NCBI GenBank assembly: GCA_001940895.1
Contig: MSGY01000006.1
Span: 131,179-194,512 of the forward strand
From: Christensenellaceae bacterium Phil10
GTDB lineage: Bacteria; Bacillota; Clostridia; Christensenellales; CAG-917
Reading direction: 5' to 3'
DNA: 63,334 bases
Below the pieces are notes generated by a model, which made no database searches, had not been told where the DNA came from, and worked only from the letters and a program-made list of their open reading frames with translations. This document shows, piece after piece, positions 27,138 to 41,369 of this stretch (positions are counted from its first letter, which is position 1; every line of letters starts with the position of its first letter). A program made the position numbers and the translations under genes.

Positions 27138-27142
27138 AAATA

Positions 27143-28462
27143 ATGACAGATAACGAAAAAAACATTTCAGATTGCGAAAATCGTTGCGTAAAGCCCTCGG
27201 AAGTCGATTTAAAGCGAGCGGGGATAATTACCGAAACCTTTGTGGAAAAGGTTGAAAACGCCGCTTCGGTGAGAATAGGCTCGAGTGCCGAGGAGAAAAA
27301 AAGCGCAGTTGTGATACGGGATTTTTACAATAAAATTCTCGGACTTCCCGCACGGCAGGAGCCTTTTACGGTGATGCCTCTCGCAGGGCGTTTCGGCGTG
27401 CCTATTTACGGCGTGATTTACGCCGTCGCGCTTGCGTTTTATATTATAGGGATTCTTGTCGACGAGAAAAACGTATCCTATGCGTTTCTTGCGCTTGCGC
27501 TTGTAGTCTCGGCGGCGGCCGCGGCGATGATAACCGTGCAGGTATTGCTTAACCGTAATACCTTCAACGCATTGTTCCCTAAGCGCACGTCCTACAACGT
27601 TTTATCTTCTATAGAGCCCAAGGGCAATCCCGAATGCACGCTGATAATAGGCGGACATTACGACAGCGATATGGACAGATCCGACCTGTTGACGTTTCTT
27701 AAGGACAAAAATCTTCCCTCGTGGTTGTCGGGACTTTTAAAGTCGTTGTCGCTTGCGAGTCTGCCCGTATTGTTCGTGCTTGCGATAGTTGCGATGTGTC
27801 TGCCCGGGCGGAATGCCGGCACAAAGGCCTTTCTGTTTCTGTTTCCGACAATATTCTGCGGACTTGCGATATTTTATCTGATAACCGCTTTCAGCTACAA
27901 GAAAAAGAAGAACGGAAGCGTGGGCAGAGAGGGGTTGCAGGCGGCGGGTATTACGCTTGCAGTTGCGGACTATCTGAGACTTCATCCCGACCTCGTGCCC
28001 GATAATTTCAGGATAGTGCTTGCGTGTTTCGGCGCAAAGGAATGCGGAGCGAAGGGAAGCGAGCAGCTGATACTGCAACATTACGGACGGGATTCCTTTT
28101 TAATCAACCCGGTGTTTGTTAATTTCGCGAAGTTGGGAGAAAACGGAAATACGGTGATACAGGGCGACAGAAAATATAAAAACATGTACGACCTGAAACT
28201 CAACAACGTTGCTTTCAACGCGTTAAAAGACGCCGGACTGGACCCTTCGTTTGCATACAGCAAGGACCTGTTTACCGACAGTACGCCTTTCGCAAAGCAT
28301 AAAATACCGACGGTGACGGTTGAGCTGAAAAAAGGCGATAACGAGTTTTCGGGCGTATATAACGAGGCGTTCGAGGGCGCGCTCAACGTTACGCTTAATA
28401 CCGTCGACTATATGAAAAAGCGGCAGGACCGCTATAAAGGTGCCGAAGAAGAAATAATGTAA
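27143..28462 (+). CDS. Membrane M28-fold protein with degenerate active site
   Basis: Same architecture as 18249-19517 (GGHYDS, TDSTPF) but lacks several Zn/catalytic residues; ATG 5 nt after glnA stop. Confidence 0.7.
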   Translation: MTDNEKNISDCENRCVKPSEVDLKRAGIITETFVEKVENAASVRIGSSAEEKKSAVVIRDFYNKILGLPARQEPFTVMPLAGRFGVPIYGVIYAVALAFYIIGILVDEKNVSYAFLALALVVSAAAAAMITVQVLLNRNTFNALFPKRTSYNVLSSIEPKGNPECTLIIGGHYDSDMDRSDLLTFLKDKNLPSWLSGLLKSLSLASLPVLFVLAIVAMCLPGRNAGTKAFLFLFPTIFCGLAIFYLITAFSYKKKKNGSVGREGLQAAGITLAVADYLRLHPDLVPDNFRIVLACFGAKECGAKGSEQLILQHYGRDSFLINPVFVNFAKLGENGNTVIQGDRKYKNMYDLKLNNVAFNALKDAGLDPSFAYSKDLFTDSTPFAKHKIPTVTVELKKGDNEFSGVYNEAFEGALNVTLNTVDYMKKRQDRYKGAEEEIM

Positions 28463-28475
28463 TATTAAAAGAAAT

Positions 28476-28504
28476 AAAAAAGCCGCGTTTCCGACGCGGC
28501 TTTT
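28476..28504. terminator. Bidirectional intrinsic terminator
   Basis: AAAAGCCGCGT-ttccg-ACGCGGCTTTT. Confidence 0.8.
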
Positions 28505-28521
28505 GATTTAATCGGATTTAA

Positions 28522-29727
28522 TCAGACGTCGAGTTTCAACCATTCGCCTTTCAGTTTTCCCGTTTTTTCAAGAATAACGCGAAGAGCAAGAGAAACCACG
28601 GCGGGAATAACGAACATCAGGAAGATTATCGCAAGGGCGATTTTCCATCCGGGAAGCACGCCTGCCGAGGCGTTTATTACGCCGAAAACGCCTACGAGAC
28701 CGCTCGTGCCCATACCGCCGCCGGAGGCGTCGCACATAAGACCGAAAGCGCACGTGGCGAGAGGACCGGTAATCGCCGACGCGATAACGGGCGGCAAAAA
28801 GATAATCGGGTGTTTCATGATATTCGGTATCTGCAACATGCTGGTGCCTATGCCTTGCGAGATAAGACCGCTTAATCCGTTTTCCTTGAAACTCATCACG
28901 GCAAAGCCTATCATCTGGGCCGCACAGCCCACAACCGCCGCTCCGCCCGCAAGCATCATTGCTTCCGACGTGGAACCCGAGGCGATGGCAAGCCATATCG
29001 CCGCGCTGGACGTAGGCATCGTCAGAAGGACGCCCATTACCACGGAAATCACGATTCCCATGACGAAAGGCTGCGCGGTAACGGAAATTTCGATAAATTT
29101 CTGAATGACTTTAATCAGCCAGATTGCGGGATATGCCACAAACATAGAGATAAAGCACGTAAACATAACCGTTAAAGGCACGATTAGAATATCCAGTTTT
29201 GTTTTTCCCTGAACGCGCAAAACCGTTTCGAGGGCAACCAGAGTGCCGACGTACGCTCCTATCGGGTTGCCGGGAAGGCCCAGTCTGACGGTAGTAAAGG
29301 CGGTAACGGTATTTAATAACGAAAACGAACCGGCGTGCGCCGATGAATAGACCGTATCGGGAAGAAACGCCCCTGCAAAACCCGCAACCGCACAGGCAAA
29401 AATAACGAGGTCGGGCGCCTTGAGTTTCTTCGCGATGCCCACGCCGATACCCGCGCCCATCAGAGTGCAGGCTATATTGCCGATAAGTATGAGGGCGGCA
29501 CCGAAACCGCTCGATTCGCCGAACCACTTGCCTATCTGTTTTAAAATCGTACCCGCGATAAGCGTAACGAACAGGCCCTGCGCCATACCTGAAAACGCGT
29601 CGATAAAATAACGCGTCGCAAGTTTTTTAAGGATGGTTTTCCATTTTTTTCCGTTGACGTCGCCTGCGGGGACGTACGGCGGATTTGTTTCGATATCGGG
29701 GATTACCGGCGGATTATTTTCGCTCAT
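28522..29727 (-). CDS. Stand-alone PTS EIIC-like (EIIC_2) membrane protein
   Basis: FSGMAQGLFVTLIAGTIL, KTKLDIL, PTSSAAI, GIGTSMLQIPNI, GGGMGTSGLVG. Confidence 0.85.
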   Translation of the reverse strand: MSENNPPVIPDIETNPPYVPAGDVNGKKWKTILKKLATRYFIDAFSGMAQGLFVTLIAGTILKQIGKWFGESSGFGAALILIGNIACTLMGAGIGVGIAKKLKAPDLVIFACAVAGFAGAFLPDTVYSSAHAGSFSLLNTVTAFTTVRLGLPGNPIGAYVGTLVALETVLRVQGKTKLDILIVPLTVMFTCFISMFVAYPAIWLIKVIQKFIEISVTAQPFVMGIVISVVMGVLLTMPTSSAAIWLAIASGSTSEAMMLAGGAAVVGCAAQMIGFAVMSFKENGLSGLISQGIGTSMLQIPNIMKHPIIFLPPVIASAITGPLATCAFGLMCDASGGGMGTSGLVGVFGVINASAGVLPGWKIALAIIFLMFVIPAVVSLALRVILEKTGKLKGEWLKLDV

Positions 29728-29851: not shown

Positions 29852-30772
29852 TTATTTGTTTTCGTACACCCGCCAAAGAAAATCTTTTTCCTTTTTAAGC
29901 ACTATGCGCGCCGCGGGCATCCAGAGTTTCAGATTGTAGTCGTGGAAGGAGTTAAGCGGCTCGTAAGAGCAGAAGTATTCGTATTTCACGCCGTTTTCTT
30001 CAAGGGCTTTGCGAAGTTTTTTGCTGCCGCAGTTGGTAAATACGTCCTGAATGCCGTTGTTGAGGAAAAGGCGGGGGAAGTCGGGCGTAACGCCGTTAAA
30101 CACCTGCAACTGCTCGTAATAGGGATATTCCGATTTAAGTTTTTTGTAATTTTTGATACCCGTGCAGTGATACGTCATCGTGCGTATAATGGGAAGGTTG
30201 ATTATCTTCCCTTCGAAATCGATTGCGGGGCAGTTGAGAATAGCGCCTTTTATTTTTATTTCGGGCACGTCGGGAAGGCCGAGTTTCTCGCGGTATTCGG
30301 GACGAGCCTGACAGTTTATCGTCGCGACGGAAAGATGACCGCCCGCGCTGTCGCCGGAAATCACGAGATTATCGAGGTCGAGGCCGTATTTCACCGCGTT
30401 GTTCACAATCCACTGCAAGGCCTTATAAACCTGTTTCATATAATCGGGGAATTGATATTTCGGCCCGAGACAGTAGTTTATATTTATGGTAAACGCGCCC
30501 GTACGCGCCATATGCTGGCAATAGGACCTGCGCATTTTTTTATCGCCCGTAATCCAGCCGCCGCCGTGAATCATAAGAAAAACGGGAAATTTGCCCGGCG
30601 TGAGCTTTCCGCGCTGGTTTTCGTCGTAGATTATGTCGAGTTTACCCGTTTCGGGCATATCCTCGTCGTAAACTATATCTTTGATTTCGGTAAGTTCTTT
30701 ACAGGGAAAACGGTTGCAAAGAACGTATTTGATACAATCGTCGATATAAAAAACCGTGCTTAAAAGAGACAT
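29852..30772 (-). CDS. Alpha/beta hydrolase, hormone-sensitive lipase (HSL) family
   Basis: HGGGW oxyanion motif, GDSAGG nucleophile, QD and FHD triad candidates; ATG 30772 after GGAGG. Confidence 0.88.
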   Translation of the reverse strand: MSLLSTVFYIDDCIKYVLCNRFPCKELTEIKDIVYDEDMPETGKLDIIYDENQRGKLTPGKFPVFLMIHGGGWITGDKKMRRSYCQHMARTGAFTININYCLGPKYQFPDYMKQVYKALQWIVNNAVKYGLDLDNLVISGDSAGGHLSVATINCQARPEYREKLGLPDVPEIKIKGAILNCPAIDFEGKIINLPIIRTMTYHCTGIKNYKKLKSEYPYYEQLQVFNGVTPDFPRLFLNNGIQDVFTNCGSKKLRKALEENGVKYEYFCSYEPLNSFHDYNLKLWMPAARIVLKKEKDFLWRVYENK

Positions 30773-31044
30773 AATTATCCTCCGGAAATCTGTTATTATA
30801 AGTATAATAAAAATTTTCGGGATATGCAACAAAATTCGGATAATTGTCATAAGCCGCGAGAAACGGCATAAAATCGAGAGGGGATTGCCGCCCCGGGCCC
30901 CTGTTTTAAAGGAATAACCTCGGTAATTTCTTTACACAAAAAAGCAAGTGTATAATTTATTTTTTTTATGACGATTGCGTTTTGAAAAAAAGTGGCCGCT
31001 ATGGTAATATTAAATTAATAAATAAATTAAAAGGGGGTTTTCCC

Positions 31045-31833
31045 ATGGACAACATCACCAAGGCAAAAATCAATCTGTTTGCTGTTCTCAGGAACCTTGA
31101 AGATTTGTGCGAAATGGATTCCGTCTCGGCAGATATCGTCAAGGACACAAAAATCTCGGTTCAGTTCAACGTGCCCGACGTCGGCAGCGCCACGTTGGAT
31201 TTCGACCACGGCAAATGCAAATTCACCCGCGGCAAAAAACACGCGGCGTTGCAATTGTTCTTTACTTCGGCGGAGCATTTCAACAATTTAATCGACCCCC
31301 CGAAAGATAAAAACGGCAAACCGAAAACAGTCGTTCCCATTTTTTACAACGTTTTCAAAGTGGGATTTCTGCTTAATCAGTTCACGAAGCTTGCCGACCG
31401 TCTGAGTTATTATCTCCAGCCGGCGCCCGACAAGGCGGAGCAACTTCTTGCCGACCCCGAATACTTCCGTGTAAATACCGTTCTCACTTTATACACCGCA
31501 TTGTTTGCTCTTTGCGAAGTTGCCAACAGCGACAAAGTCGGCAAATTGTGCGCAAAGCGTATGTGCGACGGTAAAATTGCCGCGGGTATTCCCGGAGGAC
31601 CTCAGCTCAATATCGAGGTCAAAGACCACAAACTTTACGGCGCAAAAGGCGCAATCGACGACTGGTCGGCGCAGATGTACTTTGCGGACCTTCAGTTCGC
31701 TCACGACATTTTAAACGGAAACGCTTCGAGCTTCGGCGGAATGGGCAGCGGACAATTCCAGGTCAGAGGCCGTCTCGATATGCTTGAACAAATGGCAAAG
31801 ATGCTCAATATAGTCGGCGCATATCTCGCTTAA
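31045..31833 (+). CDS. Uncharacterised protein with probable tandem SCP2-like lipid-binding domains
   Basis: Two halves with the SCP2 pattern (VQFNV..ATLDF..GKC; LNIEVKD..G..MYF.D...IL.G....G.FQVRG); fold call by eye. Confidence 0.6.
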   Translation: MDNITKAKINLFAVLRNLEDLCEMDSVSADIVKDTKISVQFNVPDVGSATLDFDHGKCKFTRGKKHAALQLFFTSAEHFNNLIDPPKDKNGKPKTVVPIFYNVFKVGFLLNQFTKLADRLSYYLQPAPDKAEQLLADPEYFRVNTVLTLYTALFALCEVANSDKVGKLCAKRMCDGKIAAGIPGGPQLNIEVKDHKLYGAKGAIDDWSAQMYFADLQFAHDILNGNASSFGGMGSGQFQVRGRLDMLEQMAKMLNIVGAYLA

Positions 31834-31844
31834 GGAGGAATATT

Positions 31845-33134
31845 ATGAATCTCGTTTACGAACCCAAGAAAATCATTGACGTATCAAAAAGTCAGGCCAC
31901 TTTCAAAAGGGCTCTGAACTGCATTCCCGCAGGTATTTACGGACATCTCGGACCTTCCGAAGGATGTATGGTACCCGTTTCGTCCTATCCTCTTTATATG
32001 GATCACGCGCAAGGCGCGTATATCTGGGATATCGACGGCAACAGAATTATCGACTACATGTGCGGTTACGGCCCCAACTATCTCGGATATAACGACCCCG
32101 ACGTCGACGCGGCGGCGGCCGCCCAGAGAAAAAAGGGCGATTGCACGACGCTTATCAGCGATATTACCGTCGAGTTTGCGGAAGAAGTCTGCAGCACGAT
32201 AAACATGGCGGACTGGGCGTTCTTCGCCAAAAACGGCAACGACGTTACTCAGTTTGCGATGATGATTGCCCGCGCCTATACGGGCCGCAAAAAAATGGTG
32301 CTTACCAAAGGCTGGTATCACGGCGTATCTCCCTGGACGCAGAAACTCGGATATTCGGGCATAGTCGAAGAGGACGTATGCAATAACCTCTATATCGAAT
32401 GGAATCATCCCGAGCAGTTCGAAGCGCTGTGCAAACAGTACGACGGACAGATTGCGGGCTTTATTTCCCAGCCCTATCAGCACGGCAACTTCTGCGATAA
32501 CGAACTTCCCGCCCCCGGATACTGGCAGAAAATACGCGAAATCTGCGACAAATACGGCGTAGTTCTTATTATCGACGACGTGCGCGCGGGCTTCCGTATC
32601 GATATCAAAGGTTCCGATTACCATTACGGCATCAAATCCGACCTGTCTTGCTTCTGCAAGGCGATAGCAAACGGCTATAACGTATCCGTGCTTTGCGGCA
32701 ACAAGAAACTTCTCAACGCGACTTCCGACGTCGCTTATACGGGAAGTTACTGGCTGTCCGCCGTTCCTTTTGCGGCGGGTATCGCGACGCTTCGCAAGGC
32801 AAAAGCGTTAAACGCTACCGAAGAAAACGCCAAAAAGGGCAAAAAACTTACCGACGGCCTTAAAGAAATCGCAAAGGACAACGGATTCGATTTAAGAGTT
32901 ACCGGCGAGCCGGGCATGTTCTATCTGCGTCTTGCAAACGACCTGCCTTCGCGCGTAATCCATCAGGATTGGGTATGCGAATGCGTCAAACGCGGCGTAT
33001 TCTTCACGAGCCATCACAATCACTTCATAAACTATGCCCTCAGCGACGAGGACATTCAGTACACCTGGGAAGTTGCGGACGAGGCGTACAAAGTAGTACG
33101 CGAACGCTATCCTCAGGCGGAATTCATAAAATAA
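31845..33134 (+). CDS. Class III PLP aminotransferase, FumI (aminopentol aminotransferase)-like
   Basis: IPAGIYGH, IDYMCGYGPN, KNGNDVT, YHGVSPW, DDVRAGFR, catalytic K in FCKAIANGY, TGSYW. Confidence 0.85.
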   Translation: MNLVYEPKKIIDVSKSQATFKRALNCIPAGIYGHLGPSEGCMVPVSSYPLYMDHAQGAYIWDIDGNRIIDYMCGYGPNYLGYNDPDVDAAAAAQRKKGDCTTLISDITVEFAEEVCSTINMADWAFFAKNGNDVTQFAMMIARAYTGRKKMVLTKGWYHGVSPWTQKLGYSGIVEEDVCNNLYIEWNHPEQFEALCKQYDGQIAGFISQPYQHGNFCDNELPAPGYWQKIREICDKYGVVLIIDDVRAGFRIDIKGSDYHYGIKSDLSCFCKAIANGYNVSVLCGNKKLLNATSDVAYTGSYWLSAVPFAAGIATLRKAKALNATEENAKKGKKLTDGLKEIAKDNGFDLRVTGEPGMFYLRLANDLPSRVIHQDWVCECVKRGVFFTSHHNHFINYALSDEDIQYTWEVADEAYKVVRERYPQAEFIK

Positions 33135-33152
33135 TCTCAGGAGGAATCAATT

Positions 33153-34022
33153 ATGGCTTTAACTAAACAAGAGTGGATAAGGCTTGAAGAGAAAGCCGAC
33201 GAGTTGCGCAAACTCTGCGTTTACACCACGCATTGTTCGAGCGGACACATCGGCGGCAGTATGAGTGCGGCAGACGTTCTCACCGCGCTTTACTACAAGT
33301 ATATGAACTTCGACCCGAAGAATCCCGACGATCCCGACCGCGACAGATGCATCGTCTCGAAGGGACACATCGGCATTTTCCTGGCGGGTATGTTCGCCGA
33401 CCTCGGCCTTATCGACAAGGAAGAACTCAAGACGTTCAACCTTACCGGCAGCCGTCTCGGAATGCACCTCGACAGCAACAAGGTCAAAGGTCTCGACGCC
33501 TCGACCGGCTCTCTGGGACACGGACCCTCGCTTGCTCTCGGTATGGCTTATGCCGCACGTCTTAACAAACAAAACTACACGACTTACGTTATGACGGGCG
33601 ACGGCGAACTCGACGAAGGCTCCTGCTGGGAAGCGTTCATGGCGATTTCGCACTTCAAACTCACCAATCTCGTAACGATTATTGACCGCAACCATTTCAG
33701 TATCGACGGCAACACCGAAGACGTTATGGCGCTTGAACCTCTTGCGGACAAGATGACGGCGTTCGGCTTCGATACGAAAGTTATCAACGGCCATCGTTTC
33801 GACGAAATATGCGAGGCTCTCGAATACGCAAAGAAAGCCCCGAAGGGGAAACCCGTTTGCATTATTTCCGATTCCGTAAAGGGTGCGGGAATGAAACTCA
33901 CGGCAGGCAATTTCAAGTGGCACTACGGCGCCATCAACGACGAAATGTACGAAGTGTGTCTGAAAGACCTCGACGAATACAAGAAAGAGAGAATCGCGGT
34001 AGCGGAAAAGGAGGGTATATAA
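33153..34022 (+). CDS. Split transketolase-like enzyme, N-terminal (ThDP-binding) subunit
   Basis: SGHIGG, SKGH, STGSLGHG, GDGELDEG...IDRN. Confidence 0.92.
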   Translation: MALTKQEWIRLEEKADELRKLCVYTTHCSSGHIGGSMSAADVLTALYYKYMNFDPKNPDDPDRDRCIVSKGHIGIFLAGMFADLGLIDKEELKTFNLTGSRLGMHLDSNKVKGLDASTGSLGHGPSLALGMAYAARLNKQNYTTYVMTGDGELDEGSCWEAFMAISHFKLTNLVTIIDRNHFSIDGNTEDVMALEPLADKMTAFGFDTKVINGHRFDEICEALEYAKKAPKGKPVCIISDSVKGAGMKLTAGNFKWHYGAINDEMYEVCLKDLDEYKKERIAVAEKEGI

Positions 34023-34023
34023 T

Positions 34024-35109
34024 ATGGCTGGCGGATTAGTTTATACAGCGCTTGAAAGCACTTCAATGGCCACGGCGGAAATCTACGGCAAAACTCTCGT
34101 CAAACTGGGCGAGCAGAATCCCAAAATCGTAGCACTTACCGCAGACCTTAAAGGTTCAACCAAAATCGGCGACTTCGCGGCAAAATTCCCCGAAAGAACC
34201 ATCAACGTCGGTATTGCCGAACAGAATATGTACGGTATGGCGGCGGGTCTCGCGAAATGCGGATTCATTCCCTTCGCGTCCTCGTTCTCGGTATTTGCGT
34301 CTCTCCGTGCTCTCGACCAGATTCACACCGATATCTGCTATCAGAACGTCAACGTGAAAATAATCGGTACGCACGGCGGCACCTCGTTCGGACAGGCGGG
34401 TTCCACCCACCACGCAATCGAGGACTTTGCTGTTATCCGTTCGCTTGCGAATATGACTCTTATCTGCCCTGCAGACGGTATCGAAACGGGCAAAGCGGTC
34501 GAGGCGGCGGCAAACACCGAAGGCCCCTTCTATATCCGTATTAACCGCGGTTTCGACCAGACTGTTTACGCAGACGACAAATACGATTTCGAAGTAGGCA
34601 AAGCCGTTCTTCTTAACGAAGGCAACGATATCACGATTATCGCATGCGGTTCCTGCGTATATCAGGCTGTTCAGGCGGCGAAGATTCTTAAGTACGACCA
34701 CGATATCAACGCTCGCGTCCTCAATATGCACACCATTAAACCTATCGACAGAGAAGCTATTTTGTCGGCGGTAAACGATACGAGACGCATTATCACCGCT
34801 GAAGACCATTCGGTTATCGGCGGTCTCGGCAGCGCCGTTGCGGAAGTCGTCATCGAAGCGGGCAAAGCGTGCGCGTTCAGAAAACTCGGCATTCAGGACC
34901 AGTTCAGTAAAATCGGTCTGCACGAGGATCTTATGGCTATGCACGAAATCGACGCCGAAGGCATCGTGAAAAACGCTCTCGAAGTTATCAATCAGGACTT
35001 CGAAAAAGAGGGCGTTCACGGTTCGGCCGTCAAAGCGGAAGGCGCCGGAAAAGCGGCTTCCGCCGTTAAACTTGCTCCTCAGGGCGCAAACTGGGTTGAC
35101 GAGGTATAA
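34024..35109 (+). CDS. Split transketolase-like enzyme, C-terminal subunit
   Basis: ADL, GIAEQN, TH..ED, IKPID, AEDH..IGGLG. Confidence 0.92.
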   Translation: MAGGLVYTALESTSMATAEIYGKTLVKLGEQNPKIVALTADLKGSTKIGDFAAKFPERTINVGIAEQNMYGMAAGLAKCGFIPFASSFSVFASLRALDQIHTDICYQNVNVKIIGTHGGTSFGQAGSTHHAIEDFAVIRSLANMTLICPADGIETGKAVEAAANTEGPFYIRINRGFDQTVYADDKYDFEVGKAVLLNEGNDITIIACGSCVYQAVQAAKILKYDHDINARVLNMHTIKPIDREAILSAVNDTRRIITAEDHSVIGGLGSAVAEVVIEAGKACAFRKLGIQDQFSKIGLHEDLMAMHEIDAEGIVKNALEVINQDFEKEGVHGSAVKAEGAGKAASAVKLAPQGANWVDEV

Positions 35110-35112
35110 ATT

Positions 35113-35949
35113 ATGGCAATGACTGCAGGCGATAAATACGCGCTGAGACTTTTCTTCTTCGCGGCTATTCCCCTGGCAAAAACCGTTGCCGAAAACGACC
35201 CGAAATTCGTAAAGAAATTCAAGGGTAAAAATTTCGTTTTCCAAATCAGCGTTTTGTCTCCGGAATTCAAGAAGACGGGAAAACTTTCGACGCATTTCGT
35301 CGTCAAAGACGGCAAGTGGGAAACTCACACCGGCGAGACTCATCCCCGTCCCGACGTCGAACTGGAATTTTCAAATCCCGATAAGTTCATTCTTTTCTTC
35401 ACGGGCAAGGGTATGCCTCTTCCCAAAATCAAAGGAGCGCTTGCGCATCTTCCCACGTTCGTCAACATTCTGATGACGCTTCTGAGAATGGCGGGTCTCC
35501 TTCAGGCGACGGACGTCCCCGCAAAACCCGAAGACCAGGAACTTCTCGTGCTTTTGTATATCAATCTTCTGACAGTGGGCGTAAGCCAGCTCAACAGGGT
35601 GGAACATCCGGGAGTAAAGGCTTTCACCACGGGAAGTCCCGACCGCGTATATGCTTTTGCGGTAACGGGATATGAGAAACTTCAGGGATGGCTCCGCGTG
35701 AAAGACGGACAGACCGTTTCCGGCAGAGGAGAGTGCAAGCGTTGCAAACCTTTCGTATGTATGCGTTTCGACTCACCTAAGCACGCGCTCGAAATCCTTA
35801 TGAGTAAAGCCGAAATGATACCCTATATGCAAAACGGATATCTTACCATCGAAGGCGCGCCCGAATTCGGCAACGAGCTTTCGATACAGTTGTTCACCGT
35901 TGCGTACTACGCGCAGGGAACTTATCTCGACGATCAGAAAAAACAATAA
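35113..35949 (+). CDS. Second tandem SCP2-like protein (paralogue of 31045-31833)
   Basis: FVFQISV..HFVVKDG..PDVELEF; WLRVKDG..G..MRFDS...IL.......NGYLTIEG. Confidence 0.6.
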   Translation: MAMTAGDKYALRLFFFAAIPLAKTVAENDPKFVKKFKGKNFVFQISVLSPEFKKTGKLSTHFVVKDGKWETHTGETHPRPDVELEFSNPDKFILFFTGKGMPLPKIKGALAHLPTFVNILMTLLRMAGLLQATDVPAKPEDQELLVLLYINLLTVGVSQLNRVEHPGVKAFTTGSPDRVYAFAVTGYEKLQGWLRVKDGQTVSGRGECKRCKPFVCMRFDSPKHALEILMSKAEMIPYMQNGYLTIEGAPEFGNELSIQLFTVAYYAQGTYLDDQKKQ

Positions 35950-35961
35950 AACGTCGTATAC

Positions 35962-35998
35962 TATAAAAACCCTCCCGGATTTCGGGAGGGTTTTTATA
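35962..35998. terminator. Bidirectional terminator ending the aminotransferase-transketolase operon
   Basis: TATAAAAACCCTCCCG-gattt-CGGGAGGGTTTTTATA. Confidence 0.88.
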
Positions 35999-36028
35999 TA
36001 TTAAATCTTAAGAGGTTGTGTGCAAAAA

Positions 36029-37192
36029 TCAGATGCTGTAATTTTCCGAAGACATACGTTCTTCGTGCTCGGCGTCGATGAGCTTCAGCGTAGCGTTTAG
36101 TTTCTTATTGCACGCTACGTACAGAGTATATGCCGCAAGTCCGACTATCTTTACCGAGGAATGAAAAATATTCGAAGCGTTTATCGCCTGTATTTCGTTG
36201 TCGGGATACAGGAGACTGCCGAACGGAATGAAGTCCATTATGCCGTAAACTACGGCAAACAGTATGCTTGCAAGACCCATTCTGAGATAAACCTCGCCGT
36301 ATTTCGCGCTCTTTTTCTTTCCTGCGGCAATTATTATTCCGAGTATCAGTAAAGCGGCGACCGTAATCCCGTCAACCGTTTCGTATGCAATGAAAACCGA
36401 ATGCTGTTTTTCGGGATAGAGCGAGCCGAACGCCTCGATAAAGGGAAGGACGACGAGATGTATTAACATAAACGTCACTGCGATTATCGCGGGTTTTACG
36501 ATGCCGGGTTTGAATTCCGTCTCTTCGCCGGCAGGAAGAAGGTTTTTCTTTTTTTCGTGACGGGAGTGTGCGAGGAAAATGCCGTATTCGATTACGACTC
36601 GCAAAGCGAGAATAGTCATACCGATGTCTTCGATAAACGGGGTTTTTATGCCGATGAGTCTAAGAGGAGCCCAGAATAACGTTACTTTGGTATCGTAATT
36701 GAATGCGGTAAGGAATATACAAGCCGCTATCGACGATACGGCGGACGTGTAAAAATATCTGACGTGTCTCGTGTGGCTGTGAAAATTGAGGAAAGTGAGC
36801 AAAAGACAGGTGAACGCGTTTGCAAGATAAAGAGCCGCTATTGCCGATACCCACGGTATATACGTGCTGACCGTGGTATAGTCGGATAAAAACGTGTAAT
36901 TCTGTACGTTGAAATGCACGAGAGTAATCCAGAAAGCGACGATTTCGGTGGCTACGTAAAGGATTTCTTTTTTGTTTGAAAGAGGAGAAAAGTTTCTGAA
37001 ATCTATGTAGCCGAGCACGAAAACGACGGGAATGACAATCATCAATACGAGATTAACGATTGCGGCCGCTTTTACGCTGTCTTTTGAAATAGCAAAAAGG
37101 TTAACCGCGCTCAGAACGGCAAACACGGCAAGCAGAAACCAATATATGTTAAGCAGCGCTTTTCTTTTTTCGTCAGAAGTTCCTTTTTCCAT
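36029..37192 (-). CDS. Polytopic membrane protein of unknown function
   Basis: About 10-11 hydrophobic segments; start uncertain (ATG 37192 chosen). Confidence 0.65.
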   Translation of the reverse strand: MEKGTSDEKRKALLNIYWFLLAVFAVLSAVNLFAISKDSVKAAAIVNLVLMIVIPVVFVLGYIDFRNFSPLSNKKEILYVATEIVAFWITLVHFNVQNYTFLSDYTTVSTYIPWVSAIAALYLANAFTCLLLTFLNFHSHTRHVRYFYTSAVSSIAACIFLTAFNYDTKVTLFWAPLRLIGIKTPFIEDIGMTILALRVVIEYGIFLAHSRHEKKKNLLPAGEETEFKPGIVKPAIIAVTFMLIHLVVLPFIEAFGSLYPEKQHSVFIAYETVDGITVAALLILGIIIAAGKKKSAKYGEVYLRMGLASILFAVVYGIMDFIPFGSLLYPDNEIQAINASNIFHSSVKIVGLAAYTLYVACNKKLNATLKLIDAEHEERMSSENYSI

Positions 37193-37300
37193 ATAACAAT
37201 TAAATGCTATCATAATTCGACAAAAAATCAAAACGATTTAATTAAGACGAATTGTAAATAATGTATAAATTTTTGACATTAATATACAATAATCAATATT

Positions 37301-37723
37301 ATGAAAAAAATTACTGTTGCATTAATTACGTTTATGACGGTGTGCTTCGCGTGCGGTTTTTATTCTGACGAACGGCAGTCGGCCCGGGCATACGATATTT
37401 ACTCTCTTTTTAAGGACGGCCATCTTCGCTTTTACGAAAACGAGCTGGCAAAAGAAAAGGTGTACAGTCAATATAGCGACAGCGAACTTTCCGAAACGGC
37501 ACATAAACATAATATTTCGGTCGATAAACTAAAGAAAATAATGGTTTTTCAGCATATGATGCATACGGTCGGCAAAGAATATTCGGTTGAAGACGTTCTG
37601 AAAGCAAGCAACAGACAAATTGTCGGCGATTTGAAATCATACGTCGAATTTCTGAAAAAAACGAAAAGCGAAGAAGAACTTAAAGAACTGGAAATCAAGT
37701 TTAAAGAAGCGGGAAGAGAATAA
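37301..37723 (+). CDS. Hypothetical secreted protein
   Basis: Signal-peptide-like N-terminus MKKITVALITFMTVCFACG; followed by terminator. Confidence 0.65.
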   Translation: MKKITVALITFMTVCFACGFYSDERQSARAYDIYSLFKDGHLRFYENELAKEKVYSQYSDSELSETAHKHNISVDKLKKIMVFQHMMHTVGKEYSVEDVLKASNRQIVGDLKSYVEFLKKTKSEEELKELEIKFKEAGRE

Positions 37724-37755
37724 AAAAGGTTAAGGCGCGTGCCTTAACCTTTTTA
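37722..37755. terminator. Bidirectional terminator ending the aldolase operon
   Basis: AAAAAGGTTAAGGC-gcgt-GCCTTAACCTTTTT. Confidence 0.88.
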
Positions 37756-37767
37756 TAATCCGTAATT

Positions 37768-38412
37768 TTATTTTTTGTATGTTTTGTTAAAGTATTCGAC
37801 GGATAAATCCACGGAATATTCGTCGGCGCCCGTTTTCTTGACGGTTTCGCGCTCGATATATTCGCGGCATCCGTTTTCAAGCGCGCGGCACGCTTCGAAA
37901 GCGTCTTCCATCGTTTTGCCGCAGACGAAGACGCCGTGGTTTGCAAGAAAACACGCGTTGCGTCCTTCAATTGCGGCAAGGGCGTTTTTCGTGAGTTTAC
38001 CGGTGCCGGCAAGACCGTATTTCGCGCATTTTACGTCGCCGCCGAGATATTTTTTCATGTTATCGTTCATAGCGGGCAACGAGAGATGAGTGCTTGCAAA
38101 CGTCGCGCCCCACGTGGGATGACTGTGAAGAACGACGTTTATTTCGGGTCTTGCGCGAAGAATCGCCGCGTGAATTTTTCTTTCGCTGGTCGGTTTTCTC
38201 GGACCCGTCCATTCGAGGGTTTCGATATCGACGACGGGAAGGTCGTCGGGCGTCATTACGACGTAGTCGAGTCCCGAAGGGGTTACGAGGGCGTGTTTAT
38301 CGTCTATGCGCACCGAAATATTGCCCCACGTGCCTTGCACGAGGTTTTCTTCAAGCATACGGATGCCCGCGTCTTTTACCATTTGTCTCAATTCCTGTTC
38401 GGTATAAGCCAT
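37768..38412 (-). CDS. Class II aldolase, L-fuculose-1-phosphate aldolase-like
   Basis: GTWGNIS, TPSG, PTSE..IH, LHSHP, LANHG: catalytic Glu and three Zn His present. Confidence 0.88.
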   Translation of the reverse strand: MAYTEQELRQMVKDAGIRMLEENLVQGTWGNISVRIDDKHALVTPSGLDYVVMTPDDLPVVDIETLEWTGPRKPTSERKIHAAILRARPEINVVLHSHPTWGATFASTHLSLPAMNDNMKKYLGGDVKCAKYGLAGTGKLTKNALAAIEGRNACFLANHGVFVCGKTMEDAFEACRALENGCREYIERETVKKTGADEYSVDLSVEYFNKTYKK

Positions 38413-38421
38413 AAAAACCTC

Positions 38422-39075
38422 CTATTCGCGCTCGGCTTTGAGCAATTCTTCCTGGTTGGTCTTGCTGTATTTTTTCATATAGACGACGTGTTCGAGCAGG
38501 GCGCCGATTTTTCCCACGGGTTTGCAACCGCCGACGGCTTGCGACATAATAAGAGTATGCGCGGCCTTGTCGATGACGAGGCAGGAAGTAAAAGCCTCGT
38601 TCAGCGTTTTGCCGGTTGACAGAATTCCTATGTCCGAAAGCAGGCACGCCGTACGGCCTTTAAGCGCTTTTCTGATGCCCGAAATATCGTTGGTTTTTGC
38701 CGTTCTTGCGGTGGGACCGACTATCTGCGCCATATCGTCGAGAACGGGCGGTATGGAAACTTTTTTGTTGGCGACGGCAAGCGCGAAAACGGGAGATGTA
38801 ACCATGACCGCGCCCGTAAGAGGATTTTCTCTGTAAAGCTTAACGTGCATGAGAGCCTCTTTCAGAGTATCCGAAGGACAACGGTCGGTTTTATCGAAAA
38901 ATACCTCAATCACGTCTTCAGCGTTCAAATCTTTAAAATTAACGCCCGATTTCGTAATATACATACTGTTTTCGGTCGCGCGTACGCTGATGTTGTTGAC
39001 GTTGCTTCCGAAAAGATTTTCGTCAAAAACCTTATGCGCGTATTCCACGACGGTGTTTTGAAGTTTTGCGTTCAT
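38422..39075 (-). CDS. Class II aldolase/adducin-fold protein lacking the Zn ligands
   Basis: NNISVR, ITKSG, E...H retained, but HxH replaced by VTS and NHG by DIG. Confidence 0.75.
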   Translation of the reverse strand: MNAKLQNTVVEYAHKVFDENLFGSNVNNISVRATENSMYITKSGVNFKDLNAEDVIEVFFDKTDRCPSDTLKEALMHVKLYRENPLTGAVMVTSPVFALAVANKKVSIPPVLDDMAQIVGPTARTAKTNDISGIRKALKGRTACLLSDIGILSTGKTLNEAFTSCLVIDKAAHTLIMSQAVGGCKPVGKIGALLEHVVYMKKYSKTNQEELLKAERE

Positions 39076-39086
39076 ATCTTCACCTT

Positions 39087-39118
39087 AAAAAGAGCGGGCG
39101 GAAGGTTATTCCGCCCGC
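39087..39118 (-). terminator. Intra-operonic hairpin (weak terminator or mRNA stabiliser)
   Basis: GCGGGCGGAA-N5-TTCCGCCCGC followed on the minus strand by TCTTTT, directly before the aldolase SD. Confidence 0.55.
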
Positions 39119-39127
39119 GCAACGGTT

Positions 39128-40657
39128 TTATTTCTTTTTGTCGAAACTGCGTTGAAGTTCGGGCGAGCCCTGCGCTTTGACAAGCGAGAAAACTTTATCG
39201 AAGCGTTCGAGAGCGGCGTCGATAACTTCGTCGGTATCGGCCATAGAAGTGTAAAGGCGGCTTCCCGCAAGGGTTACTATTCCGTTTGCCATATACGCGG
39301 CGCCCATGTCTTTCATCGCTTCTGCGCGCGCTTCCATTTCGGCTTTGTTTTTAAGAAGTCCGACAGCCGATTTGAGGAAACTGAAACTGCTGTAATCGAA
39401 ACTCATTGCGCCCGTGCATTCGAGGTGAACGATACTGCCCTGATTGTAAACGACGTAGGGCAGATTGTGTTTTTTGACGAGTTCTTTAAGACCGGCGGCA
39501 AGCCTGTCTCCGGCAATACCCGCTTTTTCGCAGGCGTTGTATTTTTCGATTGCTTTGATGCAGCAGTATCCCGCGTAAGCAGACAAGGGGTTTGCCGCCA
39601 GAGTTCCGCCGACGTATGCTTTCTTGCCGAGACCCGCAACGCCCGCGGCCATAAGGGAAATATATTCGCGTTTGCCGCCGACGCCGCCCGCAGCGGGATA
39701 TCCGCCGGCGATGATTTTACCGAAAATGGTAAGGTCGGGTTTGACGTTGAAGAAGCCCTGAGCGCCGCCGAGACCCATACGGAAGCCGGTAACGACTTCG
39801 TCGAAGATGAACAGAGCGCCGTATTTGTGAGCAAGTTCGAGGGCTTGTTTATTGTAATCGAAATCGATGGGACGGGTGCCGCTTTCGGGGCCGACAGGCT
39901 CCACGATTACGCAGGCCGTGCCTCCGCGGAGTTTATTGCGGCGAAGCATGCCTTCGAGCATTTTGAGGTCGTTGGGGCGAACTTCGTCGGTCGTGCCGAA
40001 ACATCCTTTGGGAATGCCGTGGCTTTCAAGGAGATTGCGGCTGCCGGGAATTTTAAGGCCGTACACCATCTGGTCGGACCAGCCGTGATATGCGCCGCCT
40101 ACTTTGATGACGCGTTTATTTTTGGTTGCGCAACGGGATACGCGGATAGCCGCCATAACCGATTCGGTACCCGAGCCGAGCATACGGAACATTTCGCACG
40201 CGGGCATGTGTTTATTGATTTCTTTGGCAAGAAGAAGTTCGGCCTCGTGGAAAAGTCCTGTTACCGGACCGCAGGATTTTATAAGTTCGATAGCCTGTTC
40301 CTGAACCTCGGGGAAGTTGCTTCCGAGGATGGTGGGGCCGCCCGCTTGCAGGAAGTCGAAATATTTATTTCCGTCCGCGTCGTAGAGATAGGCGCCTTCG
40401 GCCTTTACCATACACATGGGGAAGGGCTTATTGAAGGCAAGATTGTGCTGGACGCCGCCGGGAATAAAATTTTTGGCTTCGGCGGTTATCGCTTTGGATT
40501 TGGCGCATTTTTTATCGAAATAATTTTCGACGATATCTTTATACGCTTCGTCCGAAACGCAATAAATGGGTTTACTGGTGAGTTCGTGCAATTCGTTGTA
40601 AATATCCTGCGCCTTGGGCCATTTGCCCGGATCGCAAGCATAGCCGTTTCTGCTCAT
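39128..40657 (-). CDS. Class III PLP aminotransferase (GSA-aminomutase-like, N-terminally extended)
   Basis: IPGGVQHN, SGTE, AYHG, DEVVTGFR, PDLTIFGKIIAGG, GGTLAANP. Confidence 0.88.
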   Translation of the reverse strand: MSRNGYACDPGKWPKAQDIYNELHELTSKPIYCVSDEAYKDIVENYFDKKCAKSKAITAEAKNFIPGGVQHNLAFNKPFPMCMVKAEGAYLYDADGNKYFDFLQAGGPTILGSNFPEVQEQAIELIKSCGPVTGLFHEAELLLAKEINKHMPACEMFRMLGSGTESVMAAIRVSRCATKNKRVIKVGGAYHGWSDQMVYGLKIPGSRNLLESHGIPKGCFGTTDEVRPNDLKMLEGMLRRNKLRGGTACVIVEPVGPESGTRPIDFDYNKQALELAHKYGALFIFDEVVTGFRMGLGGAQGFFNVKPDLTIFGKIIAGGYPAAGGVGGKREYISLMAAGVAGLGKKAYVGGTLAANPLSAYAGYCCIKAIEKYNACEKAGIAGDRLAAGLKELVKKHNLPYVVYNQGSIVHLECTGAMSFDYSSFSFLKSAVGLLKNKAEMEARAEAMKDMGAAYMANGIVTLAGSRLYTSMADTDEVIDAALERFDKVFSLVKAQGSPELQRSFDKKK

Positions 40658-40669
40658 GAGTTTGTCCTC

Positions 40670-41242
40670 CTAACTTTTGATATAATTGATGAATTTGTCT
40701 ATCGATTCTTTTATTTCCGCCTCTTCGAAAGGGCGGTCTTTAATAAAGCGTTGGAAAATTATTCCGAAGTACGCGCCGAGAACGTAAGCCGACAAATCCT
40801 CGGCCGTAAACGTTTCAAGCGCCTTTTTATAACTCGGGTGAGTTTTTATGCGTTCCTCGGCAAGGTTATAAATTCTGACGAAAGAGCTTTCGCCCTTGCA
40901 GAGGATACCTCTCATAAGAAGATTGCCCGTAAGATAAGGGTAGGGGATGGTATCGTCCACGAGCTTATTGATAAGAGCGGTAATCGAAAATCCGCTGTCC
41001 GCGTCGTCCCATACCGCAACGAGGTCGTTGATTTCTTCGGCGGCGATTTGCTCGATAAGGTCGTCGAGAGAAGAAAAATGAGTGAAAAAAGTGCTGCGCG
41101 ACACGTCGGCGCTTTCCGAAATTTCGTCGATGGTAACGTTTCCGAGACCTTTTTCCTCGAAAAGTTTTTTAGCTGCGTGCAACAACGCTTTGTGCGTGTT
41201 GTTTTTTTTGCGAAGCCTGCGGGAACCTTCAATATCGGCCAT
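40670..41242 (-). CDS. TetR/AcrR-family regulator
   Basis: AAKKLFEEKG..NVTIDEISESADVSRSTFFTHF. Confidence 0.93.
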   Translation of the reverse strand: MADIEGSRRLRKKNNTHKALLHAAKKLFEEKGLGNVTIDEISESADVSRSTFFTHFSSLDDLIEQIAAEEINDLVAVWDDADSGFSITALINKLVDDTIPYPYLTGNLLMRGILCKGESSFVRIYNLAEERIKTHPSYKKALETFTAEDLSAYVLGAYFGIIFQRFIKDRPFEEAEIKESIDKFINYIKS

Positions 41243-41369
41243 AAACTACCTCGTAAAAGTTATTATATCGATTATAACACGCGACAGAACAAAAAGTAAA
41301 GGATTTTTTGTATTAAAGTACAATTTTGTACTGTCCGGCGCGTTTCGGGAAAATATAAGGTTTTTTCGT

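Follow-up and report, generated by a model that had tools for sequence, protein, structure and literature searches.

The window analysed here, a stretch of 63,334 nucleotides from Christensenellaceae bacterium Phil10 (contig MSGY01000006.1, positions 131,179 to 194,512 of the forward strand), carries two convergent gene modules that may together break down sphingoid-type amino alcohols without the need for oxygen. The window is part of a metagenome-assembled genome (MAG) of 1.0 Mb that is 55% complete, and the closest relatives that bear a name belong to uncultured gut Clostridia, whose genomes measure ~1.5 Mb. Module A comprises five genes on the forward strand (31045-35949), and module B occupies positions 37768-41242 of the reverse strand. 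The original prediction had described the region as two convergent operons for the catabolism of sphingoid bases. Every gene that it named was recovered in its place by open reading frame (ORF) calls and by Pfam and NCBIfam scans, and both operons are present; they do not abut, however, as a gene for a 400-aa membrane protein and a 140-aa ORF lie between them.

Module A begins with U283 (31045-31833), a tandem SCP2-like protein. The mechanical ORF starts at 30982 and is 283 aa long; the most likely start is the ATG at 31045, giving 262 aa, because the orthologs begin there. It is followed by AT-A, a FumI-like class III aminotransferase (31845-33134; Aminotran_3, PF00202, E 5.2e-40), by the N-terminal, thiamine diphosphate (ThDP)-binding subunit of a split transketolase (TK-N, 33153-34022; Transketolase_N, E 2e-39), by the C-terminal subunit of the same enzyme, which has a non-canonical active site (TK-C, 34024-35109; Transket_pyr and Transketolase_C), and by U278, a second tandem SCP2-like protein of 278 aa (35113-35949; SCP2 22.5 bits).

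A survey of AT-A orthologs, with one genome per species, yielded 46 loci with orthologs 50-97% identical, after which identity drops to ~30%. Locus counts given here are those of tblastn and blastp searches with the window proteins, the greedy ORF maps being disturbed by long antisense ORFs. The full order of U283, AT-A, TK-N, TK-C and U278 recurs in 15 of the 46 loci, and the arrangement therefore goes beyond chance; these loci belong to MAGs labelled Ruminococcus, Clostridium, Mageeibacillus and Anaerovoracaceae, to a dolphin oral Treponema and to four other Spirochaetes. A U283 match of at least half length shares the locus with AT-A in 42 of the 46 cases (tblastn), and in every locus map inspected U283 lies directly upstream of AT-A. 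Three of the four loci without it are cut at that place, and the fourth is from a Dorea MAG. U283 also stands beside AT-A at all 6 hits among 400 sampled genomes of the phylum. The transketolase is found in 31 of the AT-A loci and U278 in 21. In genomes where the two halves are separated, U283 remains with AT-A, and the transketolase keeps its U278-like neighbour. U278 is encoded elsewhere in the genome in 9 of 9 tested Clostridia that lack it near AT-A, and in the four of these nine that were checked a transketolase adjoins the distant U278.

The best solved relative of AT-A is the aminopentol aminotransferase FumI (PDB 6hbs; E 1.1e-89, 304.7 bits). Residues 20-420 of AT-A align with residues 11-405 of this structure, with the pyridoxal phosphate (PLP) lysine in register, and the next solved hits, which are glutamate-1-semialdehyde (GSA) aminomutases, reach at most 153.6 bits (E 7.4e-44 or weaker). 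The Schiff-base lysine of AT-A lies in the motif CKAIANGY and is invariant (K272) across 24 orthologs. NCBIfam, which holds no FumI model, gives GntE (230 bits) and the HemL subfamily (216 bits), both under their cut-offs. In the accessible part of its description, FumI converts hydrolysed fumonisin B1 (HFB1), a C20 2-amino-3-ol, to the 2-ketone, with a Km of 1.1 uM and with pyruvate as the preferred acceptor (PMC3136697). The assignment of AT-A to the FumI type, made originally from the window sequence, is upheld by this by far best and near full-length match, and AT-A may act on a long-chain 2-amino-3-ol.

U283 and U278 are full-length distant paralogs by profile comparison (hhalign 99.4%, E 4.6e-21), whereas plain BLASTP between the two gives nothing significant (E 3.3). 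At E<=0.1, the SCP2 family of Pfam (PF02036) is matched by 21 of 25 members of the U283 family (best 1.4e-07) and by 6 of 18 members of the U278 family (best 8.7e-06). The matches fall in the N-terminal half of some members and in the C-terminal half of others, and two members have two matching stretches each; neighbours in the ESM Atlas also carry SCP2, although the Atlas contains a structural model of neither protein. The SCP2 likeness that had been claimed for the two proteins thus holds at the family level, with both halves matching, and we predict that U283 and U278 are tandem SCP2-like paralogs, which may act as lipid carriers. The tandem-SCP2 family is made of 168 clusters in a profile search of 5.8 billion proteins, and among the matches listed (120 of the 168 clusters) all source names shown are 'hypothetical protein'.

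Transketolases rely on a ThDP-binding motif, an activating glutamate and catalytic histidines. Histidine residues also bind the C1 hydroxyl of the donor, an aspartate binds the C2 hydroxyl of the acceptor, which corresponds to the C4 hydroxyl of the donor, and an arginine of the R318 type binds sugar-phosphate substrates. TK-N aligns with the split transketolase subunit 6yak (E 5.5e-61), and its motifs GDGELDEG...N, SGH, KGH, MH and WH are aligned there as well as in human transketolase. TK-C aligns with 6yaj (E 1.7e-83), and the motif GIAEQNM with the cofactor glutamate is found in all cassette transketolases, barring conservative changes. In the alignment of TK-C with 6yaj and the human enzyme (human numbering, counted along the 4kxu alignment), Ala takes the place of R318 and Gln-Ala that of E423-D424, while S345, H416 and R474 are retained. 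The aspartate (human D424, which we take to be D469 of the E. coli enzyme) is missing from all 36 transketolase C subunits in the 46 AT-A loci, being replaced by Ala or Gly in the 25 sequences of the cassette type (type 1/2) and by Asn in the 11 of a third type. The arginine is missing in 23 of the 25 type 1/2 sequences. Each complete relative that was searched has only two Transket_pyr genes, neither of them canonical. Judging by these alignments, the cofactor and catalytic set of the transketolase is intact and its substrate site is non-canonical. Loss of the aspartate fits a ketone derived from sphinganine, because such a ketone has no C4 hydroxyl. Asp469 of the E. coli enzyme is a well-established hotspot of specificity and stereoselectivity, and a natural split transketolase with Leu at this position gave the top pentanal conversion of the split transketolases tested, according to the available portion of one study (PMC13663882); the D469T exchange belongs to variants that accept aromatic aldehydes, according to the available portion of another (PMC10787763).

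In the third split-transketolase type, which is 40-44% identical, SDPG replaces THxG and AEANGG replaces GEDG. This type lies directly upstream of U283 and AT-A in a Limadaptatus-like clade (L016, L017, L022, L026, L028 and L041), and is also found in L020, L024 and L033-L035.

Module B, read on the reverse strand, starts with a TetR-family regulator (40670-41242; TetR_N, E 2.3e-13), followed by the class III aminotransferase AT-B (39128-40657; Aminotran_3, E 8.1e-49), by ALD1, a class II aldolase paralog (38422-39075; Aldolase_II, E 2.7e-26), and by ALD2, a FucA-like class II aldolase (37768-38412; Aldolase_II, E 2.1e-48). The gap between AT-B and ALD1, inside an apparent single operon, holds a strong GC-rich hairpin with a T-run (39094-39118, reverse strand; 10 pairs, 8 of them G-C, and a loop of 5), which may be an internal terminator or attenuator.

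For AT-B, in contrast to AT-A, a FumI-type assignment was not borne out. AT-B is HemL-like: its best PDB hit is the GSA aminomutase 4e77 (E 4.1e-60), and FumI is not among its PDB matches at 1e-20. A true HemL was also rejected, by scores under the cut-offs of the GSA-aminomutase models (283.8 bits for NF000818, cut-off 398; 267.2 bits for TIGR00713, cut-off 527.3) and by the gene context, AT-B having aldolase and kinase genes as neighbours and not haem genes; it also carries ~50 extra N-terminal residues. In class II aldolases, zinc-binding histidines and a catalytic glutamate sit in short conserved motifs. ALD2 has PTSE, HSHP and ANHG, with the three zinc-binding histidines and the catalytic glutamate present, and its best NCBIfam models are those of L-fuculose-phosphate aldolase (132.3 bits for NF005302, cut-off 264; 88.2 bits for TIGR01086, cut-off 400). 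ALD1 reads PSD, VTSP and SDIG in translation and lacks all three metal-binding histidines that ALD2 keeps, so that the name of pseudo-aldolase given to it earlier is right.

Orthologs of AT-B (56-79% identical) occur in 6 of the 400 genomes of the phylum sample, and a di-aldolase follows AT-B in all six. Together with 10 loci from cassette genomes these make up the 16 module B loci that were inspected. Aldolase genes are present in all 16, as a fused single gene in 13 and as separate genes in three (L148, L149 and L157). Elsewhere than in the window, module B is composed of TetR, AT-B, an FGGY kinase, the fused di-aldolase and sometimes a transporter of the MFS type; the TetR gene adjoins AT-B in L115-L119, L148, L149 and L157. 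A kinase had been expected in these neighbourhoods, and an FGGY kinase is indeed adjacent within module B in 10 of the 16 loci. The Phil10 genome has an ortholog of its own outside the window (G000:C6:38445-40025), which shares 58-67% identity with the kinases in module B of L115-L119. The presence of a kinase in module B argues for breakdown and not for synthesis. The Phil10 kinase gene lies ~92 kb before the window, its neighbours being a radical SAM gene and a further gene of the TetR family (G000:C6:36425-40038, L158:6425-10038).

The two modules tend to occur in the same genomes. An AT-B ortholog (E<=1e-100) is found in 38 of the 46 AT-A genomes, including four Spirochaetes, as against 6 of 400 in the phylum sample, and the co-occurrence of the two operons, on which the original prediction had staked the idea, is thus what was found. 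Within the phylum sample, U283 is present in 6 genomes, AT-B in 6 and both in 3; these three belong to three different families (hypergeometric probability 3.7e-5, uncorrected for kinship). Direct physical adjacency of the modules is confined to the nearest relatives (L004, L009 and L030).

Further genes accompany the modules in other genomes. Downstream of U278 stand a D-2-hydroxyacid dehydrogenase in five loci (L009, L010, L030, L032 and L049), a VOC/glyoxalase protein in L037 and L044-L047, a HAD hydrolase in L033-L035, and a TetR gene with an aldehyde dehydrogenase in L037-L039. Aldehyde dehydrogenases had been anticipated in the neighbourhoods of both aminotransferases, and one is also found beside module B in L118, where it is 47% identical to that of module A. 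The module A enzyme is closest to the benzaldehyde dehydrogenase MdlD (435 bits, cut-off 550), presumably a class 3 aldehyde dehydrogenase. In Spirochaetes, module B is directly followed by a FadH-like protein of 700 aa with Oxidored_FMN and Pyr_redox_2 domains, resembling 2,4-dienoyl-CoA and enoate reductases (L148:6200-8302, reverse strand, and L149), which could reduce a 2-enal such as would be expected from sphingosine. The anticipation of ceramidases held only for the spirochaete carriers, all four of which (G441-G444, with loci L044-L047) have two neutral ceramidase genes each (PF04734, ~330 bits). The ceramidase was rejected as a general companion of the cassette, given its confinement to these carriers and the occurrence of the family, over the cut-off, in 29 of 201 sampled Spirochaetota.

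In 12 of the 46 loci (L006-L008, L011, L013, L020, L027, L030, L034, L035, L043 and L048) the AT-A ortholog has a homolog of an EIIC-like membrane transporter at a distance of up to 10 kb, usually on the same strand as U283 and AT-A; in L147 the homolog immediately precedes the SCP2-like gene. The window's own copy is inverted (28522-29727, reverse strand; PTS_EIIC_2, PF13303, E 1.3e-69) and forms a pair with an M28-like protein (weak Pfam hit, E 9.8e-06, and no NCBIfam hit), the two covering 27011-29727. The pair could be the importer of the system, or an N-deacylase together with an importer.

Combining these observations, one may propose that modules A and B form a two-branch, oxygen-independent system for the breakdown or detoxification of sphingoid-type amino alcohols, a reading to which we give a probability of roughly 0.4. 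Its substrates would be long-chain 2-amino-1,3-diols, either sphingoid bases, with the host, the diet or Bacteroidota as their source, or related compounds such as hydrolysed fumonisins. In branch A, U283 would take up the lipid amine and present it to AT-A, which would transfer the amino group at C2 to a 2-oxo acid, yielding a 1,3-dihydroxy-2-ketone. U278 would then present this ketol to the split transketolase, and the enzyme would cut the bond between C2 and C3, pass the glycolaldehyde unit held on ThDP to an aldose acceptor and release a fatty aldehyde. In branch B, the starting compound would be an amino alcohol that is 4-hydroxylated (phytosphingosine-type) or differs in some other way. 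AT-B would turn it into a ketol, C1 would be phosphorylated by the FGGY kinase whose gene lies outside the window, and the ALD2/ALD1 pair would cleave between C3 and C4 to give dihydroxyacetone phosphate (DHAP) and an aldehyde. The class-3-like aldehyde dehydrogenases would complete the pathway in other genomes, and the TetR repressors would sense the lipid. Gene content, family membership, the exchanges in the active site, synteny and co-occurrence are observed; what the modules act on, in which direction they work, that the SCP2-like proteins serve as carriers and that module B is linked to lipids are inferred. Breakdown is the direction suggested by the kinase together with the TetR regulators and the aldehyde dehydrogenases, and the FumI likeness of AT-A, the two SCP2-like partners, the lost aspartate and the type of the aldehyde dehydrogenase favour a long-chain substrate. 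FucA substrates have the 3R,4R configuration, and by our stereochemical reasoning 2-keto-phytosphingosine is also 3R,4R.

Several observations weigh against this proposal. One concerns the transketolase step, for which the loss of the aspartate suits the sphinganine ketone and the stereochemistry does not: by our reasoning the ketol derived from D-erythro-sphinganine is 3R, whereas the substrates of canonical transketolases are 3S. The step would therefore call for a changed stereospecificity of the mutated site or else for an epimerase, a role for which the VOC protein is a candidate. The transketolase also retains three of its four phosphate-binding residues, and the transketolases of L014 and L015, which are linked to U278-like genes, retain the arginine. 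The loss of the aspartate is not unique to the cassette, because the other transketolase type of these genomes has Asn there. As to the SCP2-like proteins, U278 of the window exceeds the SCP2 cut-off of 21.3 bits by only 1.2 bits, U283 of the window has itself no Pfam match, and PDB profile searches with the two families gave 0 hits for one and three hits at E>1 for the other. Module B has a sugar-like appearance, with an aminotransferase that is HemL-like and not FumI-like, kinases that are xylulokinase-like (285-303 bits, cut-off 380), and transporters of the MFS or Bmp-type ABC families, which usually go with hydrophilic substrates, as does the EIIC-like permease near module A. No AT-B was detected in 8 of the 46 AT-A genomes, and 3 genomes of the phylum sample have module B without module A. 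Ceramidase is absent from five tested Clostridia (G401, G356, G404, G437 and G436) and from Treponema G438. Finally, all carriers of AT-A and the modules are uncultured MAGs. The sphingoid pathway scheme as drawn originally thus survives in its FumI-type AT-A, in the SCP2 family match, in the co-occurrence of the modules and in the kinase and dehydrogenase partners, and is weakened by AT-B, by the accessories of module B and by the stereochemistry of the transketolase step. More tentative than the two-branch reading itself is the full picture of a destruction of sphingoid bases, independent of both sphingosine-1-phosphate (S1P) lyase and oxygen, in host-associated anaerobes (gut Clostridia with small genomes, and Spirochaetes) that would combine SCP2 chaperones, a FumI-like transaminase, a transketolase for lipid ketols that feeds a C2 unit into the metabolism of sugar phosphates, and a parallel branch for 4-hydroxylated bases.

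The alternative that survives best, though we consider it unlikely, keeps the chemistry and changes the substrate. The modules would act on a small hydrophilic 2-amino-polyol, such as a compound of the serinol type, a 2-amino-2-deoxy-alditol or an iminosugar precursor, and the SCP2-like proteins would be structural or regulatory. Transamination would yield a ketose, to be split by the transketolase (module A) or phosphorylated and split by the aldolase (module B). The xylulokinase-like FGGY kinases and the MFS and Bmp-ABC transporters of module B are what such a substrate would call for, as are the EIIC-like permease in 12 of the 46 loci, the retention of S345, H416 and R474 in the transketolase, and the D-2-hydroxyacid dehydrogenase and HAD phosphatase that adjoin module A in some loci. 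It is harder to reconcile with the nearest characterised relative of AT-A, which acts on a C20 amino-polyol lipid and scores about twice the bits of other solved enzymes; with the two dedicated tandem SCP2-like proteins, kept with the enzymes across phyla; with a transketolase that lacks the aspartate for a hydroxyl that polyols would carry; and with an aldehyde dehydrogenase nearest to enzymes for hydrophobic aldehydes. Should a small amino-polyol prove to be the substrate, the pairing of an aminotransferase with a transketolase, or with a kinase and an aldolase, would still be an undescribed catabolic scheme.

Rather improbable, in our estimate, is that the lipid chemistry runs in the opposite direction, with the transketolase using hydroxypyruvate or a ketose to extend a fatty aldehyde by a C2 ketol unit and AT-A aminating the product, so that a sphingoid-type 2-amino-1,3-diol would be made without serine palmitoyltransferase. 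Both reactions are reversible in principle, the replaced aspartate suits non-hydroxylated aliphatic aldehydes as acceptors, the SCP2 proteins might hold the fatty aldehyde, and the D-2-hydroxyacid dehydrogenase (of the glycerate/hydroxypyruvate type) after U278 in five loci might supply the hydroxypyruvate. Synthesis sits poorly, however, with the co-selected module B, where a kinase and not a phosphatase is found in 10 of 16 loci, which is a catabolic order of steps, and with TetR regulators and aldehyde dehydrogenases, which are typical of catabolism. The neighbourhoods inspected showed neither an N-acyltransferase nor any other gene for lipid assembly, and FumI, the nearest characterised enzyme, is catabolic.

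Slightly less probable still is a version in which the targets are mycotoxins of the feed, that is fumonisins, AAL toxins or other 1-deoxy or threo amino-polyol lipids, with the esterase that adjoins module A acting as FumD does and the transketolase cleaving the 2-keto product. The likeness of AT-A to FumI speaks for it, and the esterase gene accompanies module A not only in the window but also in L004 and L005; many carriers come from the guts of chickens, ruminants and other animals; the 3S centre of HFB1 would, by our reasoning, suit the canonical stereochemistry of transketolase; and the fate of 2-keto-HFB1 is without description in the accessible parts of the FumI literature. FumD is a type B carboxylesterase, whereas the esterase at the locus is of the HSL type and occurs in only 2 of the 46 related loci. 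The transketolase retains the histidines for the C1 hydroxyl, which 1-deoxy substrates lack, and the carriers include the dolphin oral Treponema and human gut MAGs. That no joint pathway exists at all, the transketolase being a housekeeping enzyme of the pentose phosphate pathway placed by history beside unrelated aminotransferases, is already disfavoured and very improbable: the complete relatives searched have only two Transket_pyr genes, so that one might serve central metabolism, and modules A and B adjoin only in L004, L009 and L030, but the gene order of module A is kept across two phyla, its parts co-occur genome-wide even when unlinked, and canonical substrate-binding residues are missing from the transketolase.

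Other genes of the region are less constant. The esterase, an alpha/beta hydrolase of the HSL family (29852-30850, reverse strand; Abhydrolase_3, E 1.1e-24), is divergent from module A and is followed on its strand by the EIIC-like transporter; it scores 82 bits with the HSL model LipP1, far under the cut-off of 350, and among the relatives is kept by no more than the closest two (L004 and L005). Between the modules, the 400-aa polytopic membrane protein (36029-37231, reverse strand) matched no family in Pfam or NCBIfam scans, and adjoins module B only in L004, L009/L157 and L030. The 140-aa ORF (37301-37723, forward strand) is lipoprotein-like, with a hydrophobic N-terminus followed by a cysteine, and has no Pfam match; its cluster (c8) recurs in 10 of the 46 loci, adjacent to a transketolase gene in several locus maps. 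Upstream, the ORF of a type III glutamine synthetase (25011-27137) overlaps that of the M28-like protein (27011-28462) by 127 bases. The M28-like ORF probably starts later, because the glutamine synthetase ORF overlaps its mechanical start. Long antisense ORFs overlie real genes throughout the region, for example at 34156-35343 and 39152-41299.

Sphingoid bases are signalling lipids and mucosal antimicrobials that are supplied by gut Bacteroidota, the diet and the host, and to our knowledge their destruction by bacteria, especially by anaerobes, is largely unknown. If the proposed two-branch breakdown is true, it would define the missing steps after a deamination of the FumI type and extend the substrate range of transketolase to a lipid ketol; the full picture of sphingoid-base destruction would be the first defined bacterial catabolic pathway for these bases and include the first lipid-cleaving transketolase. 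It would also give a function to ~170 clusters of 'hypothetical' tandem-SCP2 proteins and provide gene markers for the turnover of sphingolipids, and possibly of fumonisins, in gut metagenomes. In the literature we found no description of such a cassette or pathway, whether as a combination of transketolase, aminotransferase and SCP2 or as the transamination of sphingoid bases in gut bacteria.

The one bacterial system for sphingoid bases that came up in these literature searches is that of the sphBCD genes of Pseudomonas aeruginosa. In the accessible part of the report they remove sphingosine, sphinganine and phytosphingosine and protect against their toxicity, the product being unidentified; they encode a periplasmic FMN oxidase, a cytochrome c and a PLP aldolase, need respiration and share no component with modules A and B (PMC11398299). 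Module B resembles the FucK/FucA-type pathways for L-fucose and L-rhamnose in having an FGGY kinase and a FucA-like aldolase, with the same logic of ketose to ketose-1-phosphate to DHAP and aldehyde. It differs from them in that the ketose would arise through an aminotransferase and not an isomerase, that the aldolase is paired or fused with a paralog lacking the histidines, and that the scores lie under the equivalog cut-offs. The transketolase of module A is made of two subunits like the split enzyme of Carboxydothermus hydrogenoformans (6yaj/6yak), and shares with it and with canonical transketolases the ThDP motif, the glutamate and the histidines; unlike them it has Ala for both the arginine and the aspartate, and a tandem SCP2-like gene is always adjacent to it, and a FumI-like aminotransferase usually so. 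Engineered cascades of transketolase and transaminase are used in biocatalysis to make chiral 2-amino-1,3-diols. They employ the same two enzyme classes and the same functional groups as module A; unlike it they were built in the laboratory and use hydroxypyruvate for synthesis, whereas module A is natural, has SCP2-like partners and is probably cleaving. The available portions of two studies describe transketolase variants at position 469 as open to non-hydroxylated or aromatic aldehydes (PMC10787763, PMC13663882). The nearest characterised counterpart of AT-A remains FumI of Sphingopyxis sp. MTA144 (fum cluster GenBank FJ426269, PMC2933618), with which it shares the class III fold, the aligned PLP lysine and an identity of only ~40-45% as estimated by eye; for the other genes of the fum cluster the literature gave no paper beyond that on FumI. 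FumI, unlike AT-A, comes from an aerobic alphaproteobacterium, where it is clustered with carboxylesterase and tricarballylate genes, and the accessible part of its description mentions neither an SCP2 partner nor a transketolase (PMC3136697). The enzyme families of modules A and B are thus all known, and it is their combination, their SCP2-like partners and the proposed cleavage of a lipid ketol that are new.

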